Of a stretch of 64,000 nucleotides of DNA, positions 56,597-62,864 are shown piece by piece. The stretch comes from Anaerolineae bacterium (lineage in GTDB: Bacteria; Chloroflexota; Anaerolineae; Aggregatilineales; J027). The position numbers and the translations under genes are program-made. Each line of letters opens with the position of its first letter. Within the stretch, counting starts at the first letter, position 1. The notes beneath the pieces are model-generated. The model had not been told where the DNA came from and made no database searches. It saw only the letters and a list, made by a program, of their open reading frames with translations. The stretch spans positions 1,017-65,016 of the forward strand of contig DAOTTU010000001.1 in NCBI GenBank assembly GCA_034437655.1. Reading direction: 5' to 3'.

Positions 56597-57919
56597 CTAG
56601 CTTTCCATAGAAAGGCCGATAACGACCTTTTCGGGCACGGTTTTCTTAATTGCGTTGCGTGTATCAATCACCAGACCACTGTGCGCAGCAATGAATTTCC
56701 AGTCAAATGCATCGTGGTCAGTCACCACCACAACACAATCTAATGATTCGAGCCATTCAGCGGTTAATTCATCACCAACTGACAGTCGATCGTTCGAAAG
56801 CATGACTTGCTCAACGTGCGGGTCTGTCCATGTGACATCTGCGCCACGTTGTTCAAGTAATTCAATGATGTCAAGCGCCGGGCTTTCGCGCACATCGTCC
56901 ACATTTTTCTTGTACGCAACCCCGAGGATACCCACCCGCGACCCGCGCACTGCTTTGGCGTGTTCGTTCAAGGCGTAAATCACTTTATCAATCACATACA
57001 ACGGCATCGAGGTGTTGATTTCGCTGGCTAGCTCGATGAAGCGGGCATTGTAATTCAACGTTTTCAGCTTCCAGCTCAAATAATGCGGGTCTAGCGGAAT
57101 GCAGTGACCACCGAGCCCCGGCCCGGGATAGTGTGGCATGAAGCCAAACGGTTTGGTTGCGGCTGCCTGAATCACTTCCCAGACATCAATTTGCAGTTTG
57201 TCACACATAATCGCGACTTCGTTGGCCAGAGCAATGTTAACAGCGCGGAAGGTGTTTTCTAGCAGCTTAACCATTTCGGCACTGGTCGTTGATGAGACAG
57301 GTACAACACTATCGATGACCTGTGAATAATACGTCTCACCGATTTCGCTACAGGCAGGCGTTATACCGCCAACAACACGTGGAATATTCTTGACATTATA
57401 CACCGGGTTGGCAGGATCAATGCGTTCTGGTGAGAAGACCACAAATACATCTTCACCGACAGTAAAGCCTTGTTCAACCACACGCGGAACAACAATTTCT
57501 TCAGTTGTACCGGGGTAGGTTGTACTTTCGAGGCTGATGAGCATTCCGGCATGAATGCTTTCTCGAAGGCTATCAGCGGCTTGAATCACATAGGTCAAGT
57601 CCGGGTCTTTTGTTTTGCGGAGCGGGGTTGGCACACAGAGACTGACAGCATCGGCTTCTTGCAAGGCTTGGTAGTCGGTCGTTGCCTTGAACTTGCCATT
57701 GTCGACAATTGTTTTCAGCCGCTCTGACGAAAGGTCTATAATGTAACTGGTTCCTGCATTGAGTTTAGCGACCTTGTCTTCGGCCACATCAACACCAATG
57801 ACACTAAATCCTGCTTCGGCAAAGGCAACTGCAAGCGGCAACCCTACATAACCCAGCCCTACAACGCCAATGACAGCGGTTTTATCGGCAAACTTATCCA
57901 GCAAAACTTGCTGTTCCAT
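56597..57919 (-). CDS. UDP-N-acetyl-hexosamine (nucleotide-sugar) 6-dehydrogenase
   Basis: VVGLGYVGLPLAVAFA Rossmann motif and a catalytic GGHCIP. I prefer the ATG at 57919 after GGGAG; the track ORF begins at a GTG at 57937. Confidence 0.8.
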   Translation of the reverse strand: MEQQVLLDKFADKTAVIGVVGLGYVGLPLAVAFAEAGFSVIGVDVAEDKVAKLNAGTSYIIDLSSERLKTIVDNGKFKATTDYQALQEADAVSLCVPTPLRKTKDPDLTYVIQAADSLRESIHAGMLISLESTTYPGTTEEIVVPRVVEQGFTVGEDVFVVFSPERIDPANPVYNVKNIPRVVGGITPACSEIGETYYSQVIDSVVPVSSTTSAEMVKLLENTFRAVNIALANEVAIMCDKLQIDVWEVIQAAATKPFGFMPHYPGPGLGGHCIPLDPHYLSWKLKTLNYNARFIELASEINTSMPLYVIDKVIYALNEHAKAVRGSRVGILGVAYKKNVDDVRESPALDIIELLEQRGADVTWTDPHVEQVMLSNDRLSVGDELTAEWLESLDCVVVVTDHDAFDWKFIAAHSGLVIDTRNAIKKTVPEKVVIGLSMES

Positions 57920-58085
57920 TTTTATACTCCCATGCACCAGGCAAAGTATGTCAAATTATGTGCTGTTCAGTCTAACACACGCACCCAACGGACGCGCTAT
58001 GCATTTCTGCCAGACAGATAAGATGATCATTGTCACCAGACAGGGTGTTGATAGACACGATATAAGGATTCTCATTCAATATTCA

Positions 58086-58114
58086 TTGACATTTTTTTCG
58101 ATTAGCCTAAAAAT
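58086..58114 (+). promoter_or_regulatory. Promoter of the metal-uptake operon with an embedded DtxR/IdeR-core-like palindrome
   Basis: TTGACA (58086-58091), a 16-17 nt spacer, then TAAAAA/AAAAAT. The spacer/-10 region contains TTAGCCTAA (58102-58110), which matches the central 9 nt of the IdeR/DtxR box. The flanks are poorly conserved. Confidence 0.4.
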
Positions 58115-58150
58115 ATATTTAGAACATTCTATAAAACAGCAGGAGAAATC

Positions 58151-59194
58151 ATGATGTTCCGCATACGTAATGTAGTCCTTGCTATCGCTCTGTTGATACT
58201 GGCTACGATGGCACCCGTTGCAAGCGCCCAGGACAACGAAAGCACCCTGAATATCGTTACCACTACCACGCAGGCAACCGACCTCGCCACCATTCTTGCC
58301 GAAGATGTTGAGGGTGTCTCCATCACCGCGTTGATGGGGGCTGGCGTGGACCCGCATCTGTACCAACCGACATCCTCTGACATCGAAGCAATGAATGATG
58401 CCGATGTGGTTATCTACAGCGGGCTGAACCTTGAAGGGCAATTCGACGCGGTTTTTGAAGCCCTTGGTGAACAGGGTGTGCTGGTTTATGCACTGTCGCA
58501 ACCTGTTAAAGACGCTGGTTTTATCATCGGGGCATTTGAAGAAGAAGCCGATGTCGCAGGCGCAGACGACCCGCACTTCTGGTTTGACCCCCGCAACTGG
58601 GAACTTACAGCGCTCGACCTTGCCGAAACGCTGGGTGAACTTGACACAGACAACGCCACAACCTACCTTGAAAATGCAGAGACCTATGGTGAGCAGCTAC
58701 GCCTCCTCTATGAATGGGCTGATGAAGGAATGCGGACAGTGCCGGGTAATCAGCGCTATCTGGTGACATCCCATGATGCGTTCCAGTATTTCGGGGCGGC
58801 TTTTGGCTGGCGTATGGCCGCCATTCAGGGCATCAGTACGGAGGATGAAGCTGGCGTCGGGGATGTTCAAGAAACCGTCGATTTCGTGATTGCTAATGAA
58901 ATTCCGGTACTGTTTGTCGAGAGTAGTATTCCGCCTGACAGTATTCAGGCCGTAGTTGAGGCCGTCGAAGACGAAGGCGGCACAGTTCGCGTCGGGCTAC
59001 GGGAACTGTATTCAGATGCAATGGGCGAACCAGATACATTCGGCGGCACCTATGTTGGCATGATCGCAGAAAATGTCTATACCATCCTGACATCGTATCA
59101 GTGCGCAGGGGTAGAAATTGACATTCCAGAATGGCCAGAAGAACTGGAACCAACACCGTCAGAGGAACTTCTCAACCCTGATTGTGACGTCTAA
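58151..59194 (+). CDS. Metal (Mn/Zn/Fe) ABC transporter substrate-binding protein, cluster A-I (TroA/ZnuA/MntC-like)
   Basis: Signal peptide (VVLAIALLILATMAPVASAQ). DPHLY, DPHFW and SHDAFQYF motifs. AGGAGA RBS. Confidence 0.8.
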   Translation: MMFRIRNVVLAIALLILATMAPVASAQDNESTLNIVTTTTQATDLATILAEDVEGVSITALMGAGVDPHLYQPTSSDIEAMNDADVVIYSGLNLEGQFDAVFEALGEQGVLVYALSQPVKDAGFIIGAFEEEADVAGADDPHFWFDPRNWELTALDLAETLGELDTDNATTYLENAETYGEQLRLLYEWADEGMRTVPGNQRYLVTSHDAFQYFGAAFGWRMAAIQGISTEDEAGVGDVQETVDFVIANEIPVLFVESSIPPDSIQAVVEAVEDEGGTVRVGLRELYSDAMGEPDTFGGTYVGMIAENVYTILTSYQCAGVEIDIPEWPEELEPTPSEELLNPDCDV

Positions 59195-59254
59195 CATGTC
59201 AGTAAACGGCTGCTGTGTGCCGTTATGATGAACTATAGAGATACACAGATCCCA

Positions 59255-59286
59255 GACATCAGGGGGCAGCCTTGCGTCCTGATGTC
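59255..59286 (+). other. Intercistronic 9-bp hairpin between the binding-protein and ATPase genes
   Basis: gacatcagg (59255-59263) is complementary to cctgatgtc (59278-59286). The loop is 14 nt. Confidence 0.4.
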
Positions 59287-59310
59287 CGCTTATCAACTAA
59301 CGGAGGTAGA

Positions 59311-60099
59311 ATGCAATTTAGTTCACAACAAACGCGCGCAAACCAGACTACCGCACTGGCGATTGACGACCTGACGGTGGCTTACGACAGCAAGCCCGCG
59401 CTCTGGGATGTTGATCTGGAGATTCCAGAAGGTGTTTTGCTGGGGATTGTCGGGCCCAACGGTGCAGGCAAAAGCACGCTGATAAAATCTGTACTGAACC
59501 TGATTCCACGTGCGGCCGGGACGGTTCGGTTCTATGGCAAGCCCTATGAGCAGGCGCGTTCGATTGTTGGGTATGTTCCCCAACGTGGCAGCGTCGATTG
59601 GGACTTCCCCACCTCAGTGATTGATGTCGTGACGATGGGCTTGTATGGAAAACTGGGCTGGTTCAAGCGTCCCGGTCGTGCCGAAAAAGACCTCGCGCTG
59701 CATGCTCTGGGTCAGGTTGGCATGGCAGATTTTGCCCAGCGGCAGATCAGTCAACTTTCAGGTGGCCAACAGCAACGCACCTTTCTGGCACGAGCGCTGG
59801 TGCAAGATGCCCAGATTTACTTTATGGATGAGCCTTTCACTGCGGTCGATGCGGTGACCGAACGAGCAATTATCAATATTTTGCGCGAACTGCGTGAACG
59901 GGGCAAAACGGTGCTTGTTGTTCACCATGACTTGCAAACCGTTGAAGATTATTTTGACTGGGTAACACTACTCAACGTCGAGATCATCGCCAGTGGCCCT
60001 ACCGCCGACACATTTACACCAGAAAACCTGCGCAAAACATATGGTGGGCGTGTCGCCTACCTGGAAGACAATCAACCCACCACGCCAGCAGGAGCGTAA
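59311..60099 (+). CDS. Metal ABC transporter ATP-binding protein
   Basis: Walker [10 protein letters not shown], signature LSGGQQQR and Walker B IYFMDEP. I prefer the ATG at 59311 after GGAGG; the track ORF starts at 59272. Confidence 0.85.
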
Positions 60100-60102
60100 G
60101 CC

Positions 60103-61431
60103 ATGTTGCAACTTTCAAAAGAGGATCAACGGGTCTGGCTATTGATAGGTGCTGTCGTCATGCTGGCACTGCTATTTATTCCATTCAGTCAAATAGCGCT
60201 GGATGTTCGGTATACCTATACACTTCGCACGGTGTCGCTTGGTGGTGCGTTTTTGGGTGTTGTTAGCGGGGTGTTGGGGTGTTTTGCCGTTCTTCGCCAT
60301 GAGAGCCTGATGGGTGATGCGCTTTCACATGCAGCGTTGCCGGGTGTCGGGGTTGGGTTCTTGCTTGCCGGGCGTGAACTGAGCGTGCTGCTAATAGGCG
60401 CAGGGGTCGCCAGTTGGGTTGGTGTGCAATTCATTCGTGCCGTGTTACATACAACGCGCCTTAAACAGGACGTTGCAATGGGGATTGTATTAGCCGGATG
60501 GTTTGCTATTGGGATTGCCATTCTCACCTACATTCAATCGCGTCCAGACGCCAGCCAGGCCGGCCTTGAAACATTTATCTTTGGACAGGCGGCCACCATT
60601 GTTGCCAGCGATGTGCAGCTCATTGGCGGGGTTGGGTTTATTGCCTTCGTCGTGCTGGGGTTGTTCTGGAAGGAATTCAAGCTGGTGACCTTTGATCCTG
60701 AGTTCGCTGGCGCAAACGGATTTCGGATCGGGGCAATTAACACACTACTCTCAACGCTAATTGTCGTGGCGATTGTGTTGGGTCTACAACTGGCCGGGGT
60801 GATCTTGATGGTGGGGATGTTGATTGCGCCGGGTATTGCGGCCCGCCAATGGACACAGAAACTTGACCAGATGGTTATTCTCGCCGGGATTTTTGGTGGA
60901 TTCGCAGGTAGCACAGGCGCAATTTTAAGTGCCATTGAGGCCAATATTCCAACCGGGCCTATGATTATCGTCGTCGCCTTTTCAATTGTGGTTGTCTCCA
61001 TCACGCTTGCACCCGGACGTGGGCTGGTGTGGACGTCCCTTCGGCAACGCGCAGACCGTCGTCGCTTTGCCGCCCAAACCACACTCCGCGACCTGTACCG
61101 CTATGCACAGTCTCATGGTAGCGACACCTACCCGGTTCCAGACGCCTTCATTCGTAGTGTCGGCAGCAACTTTGTGGGTCTGGGGCTGAAACAACTGGAA
61201 AAAGCAGGCCACATTCAACCGCAGGATAACGCCTGGATACTCACCCCTACTGGCATCCAGTCCGCCACCGCAGATGCACACAACCAGCAACTCTGGGAAA
61301 TCTACCGCGAATACGGCGATGAGCTACAGCTTCCACTGATTATGGAGGATCGTCAGCGCGACATTCATGAAGTGTTGCCAGAACCAGCTATCCATAAACT
61401 TGAGCAGAAATTGGAAGGAGCGTCGGTCTGA
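60103..61431 (+). CDS. ABC-3 family metal transporter permease fused to a C-terminal DtxR-like winged-helix / dimerisation segment
   Basis: Residues 1-305 form a polytopic ABC-3-like core. The ~130-aa C-terminal soluble region (LKQLEKAGHIQ...WILTPTGIQSA...LWEIY...DIHEVLPEPAIHKLEQKL) is collinear with DtxR/MntR N-terminal domains. Confidence 0.75.
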   Translation: MLQLSKEDQRVWLLIGAVVMLALLFIPFSQIALDVRYTYTLRTVSLGGAFLGVVSGVLGCFAVLRHESLMGDALSHAALPGVGVGFLLAGRELSVLLIGAGVASWVGVQFIRAVLHTTRLKQDVAMGIVLAGWFAIGIAILTYIQSRPDASQAGLETFIFGQAATIVASDVQLIGGVGFIAFVVLGLFWKEFKLVTFDPEFAGANGFRIGAINTLLSTLIVVAIVLGLQLAGVILMVGMLIAPGIAARQWTQKLDQMVILAGIFGGFAGSTGAILSAIEANIPTGPMIIVVAFSIVVVSITLAPGRGLVWTSLRQRADRRRFAAQTTLRDLYRYAQSHGSDTYPVPDAFIRSVGSNFVGLGLKQLEKAGHIQPQDNAWILTPTGIQSATADAHNQQLWEIYREYGDELQLPLIMEDRQRDIHEVLPEPAIHKLEQKLEGASV

Positions 61432-62864
61432 TGCTATTCGAACTCGAACGCCTCATTATTGACCTGCTGTTGAACGTATTCTCACGCGAAGAGATCAATC
61501 AGTTCTTGCGTGACCCGCAACATACAGCCGTTATTGTCGGGAGTTTGATTGCTGTTTCTGGAGCGCTGCTCGGTACATTTTTGCTGCTACGCGGGCTGGC
61601 CCTGACCAGTGATGCCATCAGCCATACCGTCTTACTGGGAATTGTGGTCGCCTTTCTCGTAATGACAGCGCTGCCAGAGGTCGAAGCAGAGTTGTCATCC
61701 CCATGGTTGATTATCGGGGCGGCACTTTCTGGTGTGGCAACAGTCGTTCTGACAGAGTTGATCTATCGTTCAGGGTTGGTGCGTCAGGACGCGGCGCTTG
61801 GGCTGGCGTTTCCATTACTTTTTGCGGTCTCCATCATTCTGATCTCGCGCTATGCGGACGACGTTCATCTTGATGAACATGCTGTGATGGTTGGTGAAAT
61901 TGGTGTCGCATGGGCAGACGCGAATCGCCATTGCTTTGAAAACTGTGAAACGGTTGACATAACGCCGGAAGATGAACGCGCCAACATTATTCGCGAATGT
62001 GTGAACTGTCGTGAACTCGCAATCAGTCCGCGTGATGCTGCGAATGATGACCGGGCGATTTTCCGTGAAACCTGCACCAATTGCGGTGAATACTCTCCCC
62101 GACAGGCCTTCAATGCAGGGTTTACAGAGGGTGAGCCTGTGCAGGTCTTCTGGCCGAAGTCGATTACCGTGAATGCGGTGCTGATGTTGCTGTCGGTTGG
62201 GTTCGTGACGGTATTCTACAAGGAATTGAAGCTGGCCGCCTTTGACGAAGCGCTGGCGAAGGCACTCGGTTTTCGGCCGGGTGTACTGCATTATGCCCTG
62301 ATGATACTCGTCAGCCTGGTAGCAGTCGGCGCGTTCGATGCGGTGGGGTCGATTCTCGTCATCGCGTTTTTCATCATTCCGCCGGCCGCCGCCTACCTGT
62401 TGACTGATCGCCTCGCAGTGATGCTGGTGTTGAGCGCAGTCATTGGTAGCGCGGGGGCATTTCTGGGTTATGAACTGGTCAATTATCTGGACACGTCGCC
62501 TTCAGCCGCGATGGTCCTCATGATGCTGGTACTGTTTGCGGTGACATGGATGTTGTCGCCTAAATATGGGCTGGTTTCAACAATTATTCGTCGCGCCAAT
62601 CAACGCCGCCGCTTTGATAATCAGGTCGTGATGGGGCATATTTACAACCATCAACACATCGAAAGCCAGCGCCACGAACTGACCGCCGACGAGTTGCACG
62701 AGCATTTCCGCTGGTCACAAAGCAGAATGGAGCGGGTCTTGTCGCGGTTGCGTAGCGCCCACCTGATCGACATACAGCAAAATCTCATCGGGTTGACACC
62801 AGATGGCGAAGGACGGGTGCAACAGTTCCGGCAGCAAGCGTTGTCACAAAACGCCGGACACTAG
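61431..62864 (+). CDS. ABC-3 family metal transporter permease with a Cys-rich loop insertion and a C-terminal DtxR-like winged-helix domain
   Basis: ABC-3-like TM core. An ~80-aa insertion (aa 161-240) carries C-x3-C, C-x2-C and C-x2-C. The C-terminus (LTADELHEHFRWSQSRMERVLSRLRSAHLI...LIGLTPDGEGRV) looks like a wHTH. Confidence 0.75.
   Translation: MLFELERLIIDLLLNVFSREEINQFLRDPQHTAVIVGSLIAVSGALLGTFLLLRGLALTSDAISHTVLLGIVVAFLVMTALPEVEAELSSPWLIIGAALSGVATVVLTELIYRSGLVRQDAALGLAFPLLFAVSIILISRYADDVHLDEHAVMVGEIGVAWADANRHCFENCETVDITPEDERANIIRECVNCRELAISPRDAANDDRAIFRETCTNCGEYSPRQAFNAGFTEGEPVQVFWPKSITVNAVLMLLSVGFVTVFYKELKLAAFDEALAKALGFRPGVLHYALMILVSLVAVGAFDAVGSILVIAFFIIPPAAAYLLTDRLAVMLVLSAVIGSAGAFLGYELVNYLDTSPSAAMVLMMLVLFAVTWMLSPKYGLVSTIIRRANQRRRFDNQVVMGHIYNHQHIESQRHELTADELHEHFRWSQSRMERVLSRLRSAHLIDIQQNLIGLTPDGEGRVQQFRQQALSQNAGH

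Follow-up and report, generated by a model that had tools for sequence, protein, structure and literature searches.

DtxR-like C-terminal tails on both permeases of a ZnuA/TroA-type metal importer in an Anaerolineae bacterium

Why would both membrane subunits of a metal importer end in domains that resemble a metal-dependent repressor, and what would such domains do there? This question is raised by a 64,000-nucleotide stretch of contig DAOTTU010000001.1 from an Anaerolineae bacterium (assembly GCA_034437655.1), which we refer to as the window and number from its first letter. A four-gene operon on the + strand (58151-62864) encodes, in order, a substrate-binding protein (SBP), an ATPase, and two ABC-3 permeases, called permease 1 and permease 2 below. 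An original prediction, made from the sequence alone, had assigned DtxR-like C-terminal extensions to both permeases. Its coordinates for the two open reading frames (ORFs) were exact, the peptide strings it quoted were present, and the extensions, here called tails, measure 138 and 100 amino acids (aa). We find it very probable that both tails descend from the DtxR/MntR repressor family and that the system is a cluster A-I importer of the YtgCR architectural family. The operon joins two PF00950 permeases, a ZnuA/TroA-type SBP, and an ABC ATPase, the combination by which we recognise a cluster A-I importer. The two permeases are divided as follows:

60103-61431, + strand: permease 1, whole ORF, 442 aa
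60103-61014, + strand: permease 1, ABC-3 transmembrane core, residues 1-304 (Pfam ABC-3 at residues 40-301, E=3.5e-66; hydropathy)
61015-61431, + strand: permease 1 tail (tail 1), residues 305-442, 138 aa (homology and fold; ligand positions)
61431-62864, + strand: permease 2, whole ORF, 477 aa
61431-61847, + strand: permease 2, ABC-3 core, first half, residues 1-139 (Pfam, NCBIfam, hydropathy)
61848-62159, + strand: permease 2 insert, residues 140-243, predicted extracytoplasmic (the ABC-3 match is split at profile position ~127)
62160-62561, + strand: permease 2, ABC-3 core, second half, residues 244-377 (Pfam, hydropathy)
62562-62864, + strand: permease 2 tail (tail 2), residues 378-477, 100 aa (fold and homology; ortholog conservation)

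Base 61431 belongs to both the stop codon of permease 1 and the start codon of permease 2, and the Pfam ABC-3 match to permease 2 comes in two parts, residues 31-157 and 245-374 (E=4.6e-36).

Ancestry and placement of the tails

Standard domain models did not recognise the tails directly. The original prediction had expected Pfam to return Fe_dep_repress and Fe_dep_repr_C, and neither model matched either isolated tail at thresholds as loose as E<=10. No DtxR-family match came from Pfam or NCBIfam for the whole permeases or for the tails by themselves, tail 2 drew only weak generic winged helix-turn-helix (wHTH) matches in Pfam, and DtxR-type precomputed annotation was found in 0 of 240 listed orthologs. 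Sequence searches of the PDB with single tails and with clade-only profiles gave only sub-threshold matches, to ScaR (E=1.1) and E. coli MntR (E=0.48), the ScaR match being collinear across 110 residues.

The relationship was recovered through intermediates. Among 1.84 billion representative proteins, a profile of tail 1 built from 48 sequences (A1) matched only 244 clusters, in every full-length case at the C-terminus of a protein of ~375-500 aa. Among 32 matched representatives, 31 carried ABC-3 and 22 carried Pfam Fe_dep_repr_C (PF02742; best E=2.6e-27). We aligned canonical permease tails drawn from these representatives (A4), and they display the DtxR motifs HRLWELYL, DHVHxDAExxEH, and DPHGxPIP. 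Searched against the PDB, A4 returned chains of MtsR, SloR, ScaR, DR2539, DtxR, IdeR, and MntR (E=1.6e-26 to 1e-9) over the winged helix and the dimerisation domain. The comparison of A1 with A4 by hhalign gave 99.7% (E=3.4e-26, 133 columns). For tail 2, hhalign gave 97.5% against A4 (E=8.4e-12, ~86 columns) and 94.9% against tail 1 (E=4.5e-8), in both cases over the linker and wHTH only. A local hidden Markov model of the canonical tails gave 57.8 bits for permease 1 of the window and 29.4 bits for permease 2.

Predicted structures agree with this picture for tail 1. Nearly all of the top Foldseek matches of its AlphaFold model (pLDDT 88) were DtxR, IdeR, and DR2539, covering ~120 columns at 20-23% identity with a probability of ~0.99 and modest E-values of 0.007-0.05. 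Tail 1 is thus, by homology through intermediates and by fold, a DtxR/MntR-type wHTH followed by a dimerisation/metal-binding domain; it is laid out as a basic juxtamembrane helix (RQRADRRRF), the DtxR-like wHTH, and a remodelled version of that second domain (domain 2). The model of tail 2 (pLDDT 88) comprises a long helix, a winged helix, and one more helix. Its best Foldseek match was the MarR-family protein MepR, with MntR and IdeR ranked lower, so that its structure, taken alone, is that of a generic winged helix; it is hhalign that places its wHTH in the DtxR family. Tail 2 begins with a basic juxtamembrane helix (RRANQRRRF), continues with a wHTH that is a paralogue of the one in tail 1, and closes with a single C-terminal helix. 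It has no dimerisation/metal-binding domain, as the protein ends one helix past the wing and the alignments stop at column ~86. The original claim that the tails are DtxR-like is therefore borne out by profile and structure comparisons.

The two tails occur together. In 23 of 23 related loci that reach the 3' end of permease 2, the permease 2 match extends to query residue 466-476, and tail 2 is therefore present in all of them. Orthologs of matching length number in the hundreds, and the nearest relatives belong to the Chloroflexota, class Anaerolineae (Phototrophicaceae, Caldilineaceae, and Promineifilaceae/Leptofilum). All 27 related loci that we compared keep the operon, as far as each contig extends.

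Both tails are predicted to be cytoplasmic, as the original prediction had supposed. Each opens with a segment of net charge +5 (the RQRADRRRF and RRANQRRRF stretches) after the last hydrophobic segment, and counting membrane segments back from the coupling-helix motifs (KEFKLVTFD and KELKLAAFD) puts the C-terminus inside the cell; from the basic segments and this count we infer the cytoplasmic location. In the AlphaFold models, an unbroken helix runs from residue 2 of each tail construct into the winged helix, and this modelled rigid link looks more like allosteric coupling than a flexible tether.

Residues lost and kept in the two tails

The metal ligands of DtxR are largely gone from tail 1. 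At DtxR positions 79, 83, 98, 102, 105, and 106, the canonical permease tails have H, E, H, E/D, E, and H, compared with Q395, E399, M414, R419, H422, and E423 in the window. The DtxR numbering follows a DtxR sequence whose ligand residues fell at the expected positions, and hhalign to the canonical tails gave the same substitutions. Across 120 permease 1 orthologs, only the acid at position 83 is retained: H79 is replaced by Q in 88, H98 is variable, C102 has become R, K, or Q, and there is no conserved EH pair. The ligand set H79, E83, H98, C/E102, E105, and H106 is thus not found in tail 1, which has lost all but one or two of the six. The canonical DtxR metal sensing that the original prediction had implied does not hold for this Chloroflexota clade, with the six-position set substituted in tail 1 and absent from tail 2.

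The DNA-reading residues of tail 1 are not conserved either. In place of the recognition-helix residues S37, P39, T40, and Q43, residues 354-359 are Gly, Ala, or Ser or vary between orthologs. Residue 43 is the base-reading position (Gln43 in DtxR; role taken from the DR2539 preprint, 10.1101/2024.02.12.579695), and tail 1 has Leu, Ile, or Val at that position. Other parts of the tails have been kept. Conservation matches that of the permease core in helix 1 of tail 1, in its domain 2 and its NQQLW...EDRQ region, and in the basic linker of each tail, and the E-x-x-Q of the EDRQ motif is fully conserved. Residues 101-116 in tail numbering are predicted by AlphaFold to be non-helical, which marks domain 2 as remodelled.

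Tail 2 carries a different set of conserved residues. Among 120 orthologs, H403 and H407 are invariant (120/120), as is W428 (120/120), and H425 and E416 are present in 117 and 118, respectively. On helix 1, a single helical turn separates H403 from H407, with H425 and E416 close by in sequence. None of H403, H407, E416, and H425 occupies a canonical DtxR ligand position, and to judge from their conservation the four may form a new metal site. The recognition helix is basic and conserved as well (K/R432 in 107/120, R435 in 106/120, R439 in 113/120, and also R441), with R435 at the position of DtxR Gln43. An internal translation start that would yield a free tail 2 was considered at M401 of permease 2 and rejected, this residue being Leu in 115 of 120 orthologs and so not conserved.

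The operator and its surroundings

The operon is preceded by a DtxR-type operator, which we located by phylogenetic footprinting. The elements upstream of the permeases are:

58086-58114, + strand: sigma-70-like promoter (-35 TTGACA at 58086-58091, 17-nt spacer, -10 AAAAAT at 58109-58114; 10/12 hexamer matches)
58094-58113, no strand assigned: predicted DtxR-type single-dimer operator TTTTTCGATTAGCCTAAAAA (core TTCG-ATTAGC-CTAA at 58097-58110; footprint and position weight matrix)
58119-58132, no strand assigned: second, weaker operator-like site TTAGAACATTCTAT (1 mismatch to TTAG-N6-CTAA; 22 bp downstream of the first, just past the -10)
58151-59194, + strand: substrate-binding protein, cluster A-I, ZnuA/TroA type (Pfam ZnuA, E=6e-67)
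59272-60099, + strand: ABC ATPase subunit (Pfam ABC_tran, E=1.8e-27)

Among 25 orthologous upstream regions, TTAG-N6-CTAA was present in 10 (shuffled mean 0.18, maximum 2) and TTAG-N1-CTAA in 5 (shuffled mean 0.10), and no other spacing from 0 to 12 between TTAG and CTAA was observed in these regions. The consensus operator derived from them is ATTTTAGATTAATCTAAAAT. With a leave-one-out position weight matrix, 19 of the 25 regions exceeded the 99th percentile of shuffles, and 58094-58113, at 21.1 bits, was the sole site of >=12 bits in the 64-kb window. Two sites also occur in some orthologous loci (L019 and L026). The first operator occupies the promoter spacer and overlaps the -10, and a position between -35 and -10 is typical of repressor sites. 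The promoter itself is the sole promoter-like site in 57900-58200, where shuffles average 1.1; one such site is thus expected on average by chance, and the call rests on position, not on statistics.

The window element can be set against the published DtxR consensus, TTAGGTTAGCCTAACCTAA (PMC7762939). That consensus holds two overlapping TTAG-N6-CTAA units at a 5 bp offset, so the window element, a single unit, corresponds to a single-dimer DtxR-type site; its TTCGATTAGCCTAA matches positions 1-14 of TTAGGTTAGCCTAACCTAA at 12/14. The original prediction had read TTAGCCTAA as the central palindrome of an IdeR/DtxR box. It is present where predicted (58102-58110) and within a DtxR-type operator, as the right-hand part of the TTAG-N6-CTAA site and not as the centre of an IdeR 19-mer. 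The IdeR 19-mer reading was rejected: 13/19 positions match, the flanks are not palindromic, and the conserved unit is TTAG-N6-CTAA. By itself the single occurrence of TTAGCCTAA in the window, against 0.11 expected, is weak evidence, and it takes its meaning only from the footprint. No Rfam riboswitch matched 57800-58300 at E<=1. Co-variation between the operator half-sites and the recognition helices of the tails was not detectable, because the tail 2 helix and the half-sites are both nearly constant.

We also searched for a regulator that could use this operator. A six-frame ORF scan of the window contained no free-standing DtxR/MntR ORF, and precomputed Pfam annotation gave no DtxR/MntR gene in the ~10 kb past permease 2. 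In one related locus (L005), a complete free-standing DtxR-family gene (2301-2987; PF01325, PF02742, and FeoA) lies directly upstream of the orthologous two-tailed operon. DtxR/MntR regulators are commonly unlinked from their targets, and the absence of one at the locus carries little weight for that reason. The original statement that no such gene is present at the locus thus stands for the window, and it counts for little when L005 pairs the same transporter with a complete DtxR gene. Clustering of the flanking ORFs of the 27 loci did not yield a recurrent neighbouring regulator: the DtxR gene occurs in L005 only, and a MerR-type regulator in three Leptofilum-type loci only.

Several observations concern these neighbouring genes. 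L005 comes from an Anaerolineae metagenome-assembled genome, and a by-eye alignment of its DtxR-family protein with DtxR showed H79 as Y, C102 as S, E105 as V, and H106 as Q. Next to the operon in the three Leptofilum/Promineifilaceae loci (L015, L016, and L017), on the upstream side of the SBP gene, lie divergently oriented genes for a MerR-family regulator and a heavy-metal P-type ATPase (for example, L015, 2276-3046; L016, 600-1367 and 1512-2954). In L016 they are separated by a transposase-like ORF, and the operator occurs twice (1453 and 3009). Past the 3' end of the window, in L028 (11575-16168), the genes 3' of the operon encode an aldo-keto reductase, a PIN-domain protein, a DUF2834 protein, an HTH_3/MLTR_LBD regulator, and a P-type ATPase; a Fur- or DtxR-family gene was not found in that interval. 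The window's contig is also present in microbial-mat metagenomes.

The remaining subunits bear on the transported metal. The best NCBIfam match of the SBP was AztC, a zinc protein, with a score under the cutoff. Its motif TSHDAF places His at the third ligand position, which we take to be the residue found in ZnuA, TroA, and AztC, Glu presumably being that of PsaA and MntC. Rather than manganese, the importer may take up zinc or have a broad specificity. The ATPase matched NCBIfam models of Mn/Fe and Mn ABC ATPases, all under their cutoffs, and public gene calls place its start later, giving 262 aa. The insert of ~100 aa in permease 2 has no significant Pfam match (residues 140-243), and eight of its residues (C168, C172, C190, C193, C215, C218, H146, and H167) are found in 120/120 orthologs. 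From hydropathy, the insert is predicted to face the cell exterior, where it could act as a cap, either held together by disulfides or binding metal, close to where the SBP docks.

Possible functions and comparison with known systems

The reading that we favour, and hold only tentatively, is that the paired tails serve as a cytoplasmic sensor on the transporter itself, and that the operator is used by a conventional free dimer of the DtxR family. A pairing of the tails is proposed because each transporter would contain one copy of each permease and because each last membrane helix continues unbroken into its tail. Tail 1 and tail 2 would pair beneath the membrane and, next to the ATPase subunits, make up a DtxR-derived pseudo-dimer. 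Cytoplasmic metal would be sensed at a new site of this module, for which the His/Glu cluster of tail 2 is the candidate, and the module would feed back on the transporter in place. Transcription would be repressed separately, by a conventional, free-standing homodimer of the DtxR family, whose gene would lie elsewhere in the genome and which would act through the TTAG-N6-CTAA operator in the promoter spacer. The pairing, the new metal site, and the regulation in place are all inferred; what supports this division of labour is the symmetric palindrome with DtxR half-sites and the complete free DtxR regulator in L005. A more specific form seems unlikely to us: that the tails are a heterodimeric sensor which has abandoned DNA binding and the ancestral metal sites, and whose His3-Glu site (H403, H407, H425, and E416) shuts a type II importer when internal metal is high. 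If true, a metal importer would for the first time be seen to carry a trans-inhibition module on its permeases, a transcription factor domain turned transporter gate. Several points weigh against a sensor acting in place. We know of no ABC-3 importer that is gated by a permease-borne domain. An adjacent free regulator is missing from 26 of 27 related loci and from the window. Tail 2 has Ser at the position of DtxR S37, Arg at that of R47, and Arg at that of Gln43; these residues are conserved across families along with the TTAG half-sites, and as a sequence pattern they fit a DNA reader and would be left unexplained by pure gating. The only experimental precedent, YtgCR, is a released transcriptional repressor (PMC5599777, PMC7755916).

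An autorepressor of the YtgR kind we regard as a serious though doubtful possibility. Here the tails would be the operon's own metal-dependent repressor, with tail 2 reading DNA, perhaps scaffolded by the dimerisation remnant of tail 1, and binding TTAG-N6-CTAA when metal-loaded, either still tethered to the membrane or freed by proteolysis, as happens in Chlamydia. Homology to the YtgCR architecture, a DtxR-type operator in the promoter spacer kept in 19 of 25 loci, the lack of a linked free regulator in the window and nearly all related loci, a conserved basic recognition helix in tail 2 with Arg at the base-reading position, and a His/Glu cluster that could serve as a metal switch all speak for it. 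A symmetric palindrome, however, needs two equivalent readers, and tail 2 has no dimerisation domain while tail 1 has no conserved reading helix. Neither tail keeps the canonical DtxR metal sites, the tails are ~16 and ~12 kDa and sit on an unbroken helix to the membrane, compared with a YtgR product of ~28-30 kDa, and L005 has the same tails together with a complete free-standing DtxR regulator. It is improbable, in our judgement, that the tails are instead remnants of an ancestral YtgCR-type fusion that lost its regulation and now serve only the assembly or stability of the permease heterodimer, with no sensing. The loss of metal ligands and DNA-reading residues from tail 1 is what such decay would leave, as is the failure of Pfam models to recognise either tail any longer. 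Yet both tails are under strong purifying selection across Phototrophicaceae, Caldilineaceae, and Promineifilaceae; H403, H407, and W428 of tail 2 are invariant in 120/120 orthologs, E416 and H425 nearly so, and the E-x-x-Q of tail 1 is fully conserved. Nor would a purely structural relic be expected to retain a His cluster on its surface or a basic recognition helix.

We give very little credence to a docking role, in which the dimerisation remnant of tail 1 would recruit or sequester a free DtxR-family repressor at the membrane and so couple transporter state to transcription, by a logic analogous to that of MalK-MalT and PtsG-Mlc. Tail 1 does keep a conserved DtxR domain-2 surface despite its lost DNA-reading and metal residues, and a free DtxR-family gene adjoins the operon in L005, but domain 2 has been remodelled (the predicted non-helical tail residues 101-116), and to our knowledge no such interaction has been described for DtxR proteins. 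Returning to the tentatively preferred sensor in place, the clade offers residues to mutate (H403, H407, H425, and E416) and a defined operator (58094-58113). It also poses a natural test: both of its tails lack the textbook metal and DNA contacts and are strongly selected all the same, so that it can be asked whether such fusions are always released repressors or whether some regulate transport in place. The practical importance is modest, since the outlines of how cells control metal uptake by feedback are well established. The interest is moderate and comes mainly from showing that an oddity of Chlamydia occurs widely, and that one of its branches, ligand-less and two-tailed, is open to direct testing.

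Among known systems, the trans-inhibition domains of ABC importers, namely the MetNI C2 domain and the ModBC regulatory domain, offer a functional analogy only for the proposed logic of paired cytoplasmic domains that sense internal substrate and inhibit transport. Those domains are on the ATPase subunits, have other folds, and bind the transported substrate at known sites, whereas the window's domains are on the permeases, derive from DtxR, and have only a candidate ligand site. The free-standing regulators DtxR, MntR, IdeR, ScaR, and TroR share with tail 1 the fold (wHTH, long helix, and domain 2) and the LTP-x-G wing turn, and share with the locus the operator half-sites TTAG/CTAA spaced for one dimer. 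They differ in that they are soluble homodimers in which the metal sites and an S-x-P-x-V-S recognition helix are conserved; the window's tails are fused to the membrane, occur as one of each type per transporter, and have no such metal sites, and tail 2 has no domain 2.

The canonical fusions of ABC-3 with Fe_dep_repr_C are much closer. They are common in metagenomes, with Cytophagales, Cyclobacteriaceae, and Ekhidna among those named, and are annotated only as metal ABC transporter permeases. They share the architecture of permease 1, a basic juxtamembrane helix (RG-L-L...RRR), and the 133 columns aligned at 99.7% by hhalign. They keep H79, E83, H98, E/D102, E105, H106, and DPHG-x-PIP and are recognised by Pfam, unlike the window's clade. 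ABC-3 permeases of ~375-380 aa from other lineages (P0298, P0306, P0360, P0364, and P0368) have short, wHTH-only tails with an S-H-G...H motif. These short-tailed proteins resemble a partner of the permease 2 type, which suggests that two-tailed transporters may exist beyond the Chloroflexota.

The original prediction knew of no functional description of this architecture, and one exists. The ABC-3 permease YtgC (CT069) of Chlamydia trachomatis ends in a DtxR-like domain, YtgR; cleavage releases YtgR as a product of ~28-30 kDa, which forms dimers, binds iron (Fe2+), and represses trpBA as well as the ytgABCD promoter (PMC5599777, PMC7755916). YtgC-YtgR is the only characterised member of the widespread, seldom noticed family of permease-DtxR-domain fusions; our literature searches found no experimental study of such fusions outside Chlamydia. 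They have been studied only there, and presented as an oddity of a reduced genome; our analysis shows such fusions to be common among free-living bacteria, Bacteroidota and Chloroflexota for instance. We liken the window's tails to YtgC-YtgR by architecture and family, not by direct alignment. In both, one ORF within an importer operon joins an ABC-3 permease to a C-terminal DtxR-family domain, this ORF is the first of two permeases in an operon ordered SBP, ATPase, permease, permease, and a DtxR-type operator lies in the operon's own promoter. YtgR retains the DtxR metal-coordinating residues according to a review (PMC5599777), which the window's tails do not; these are also only 138 and 100 aa, compared with the ~28-30 kDa released in Chlamydia, and in the window the second permease is tailed too. 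The architecture itself is therefore not new, and the Chloroflexota clade, as read from its sequences, is a diverged, two-tailed, ligand-less branch of a known permease-repressor fusion.

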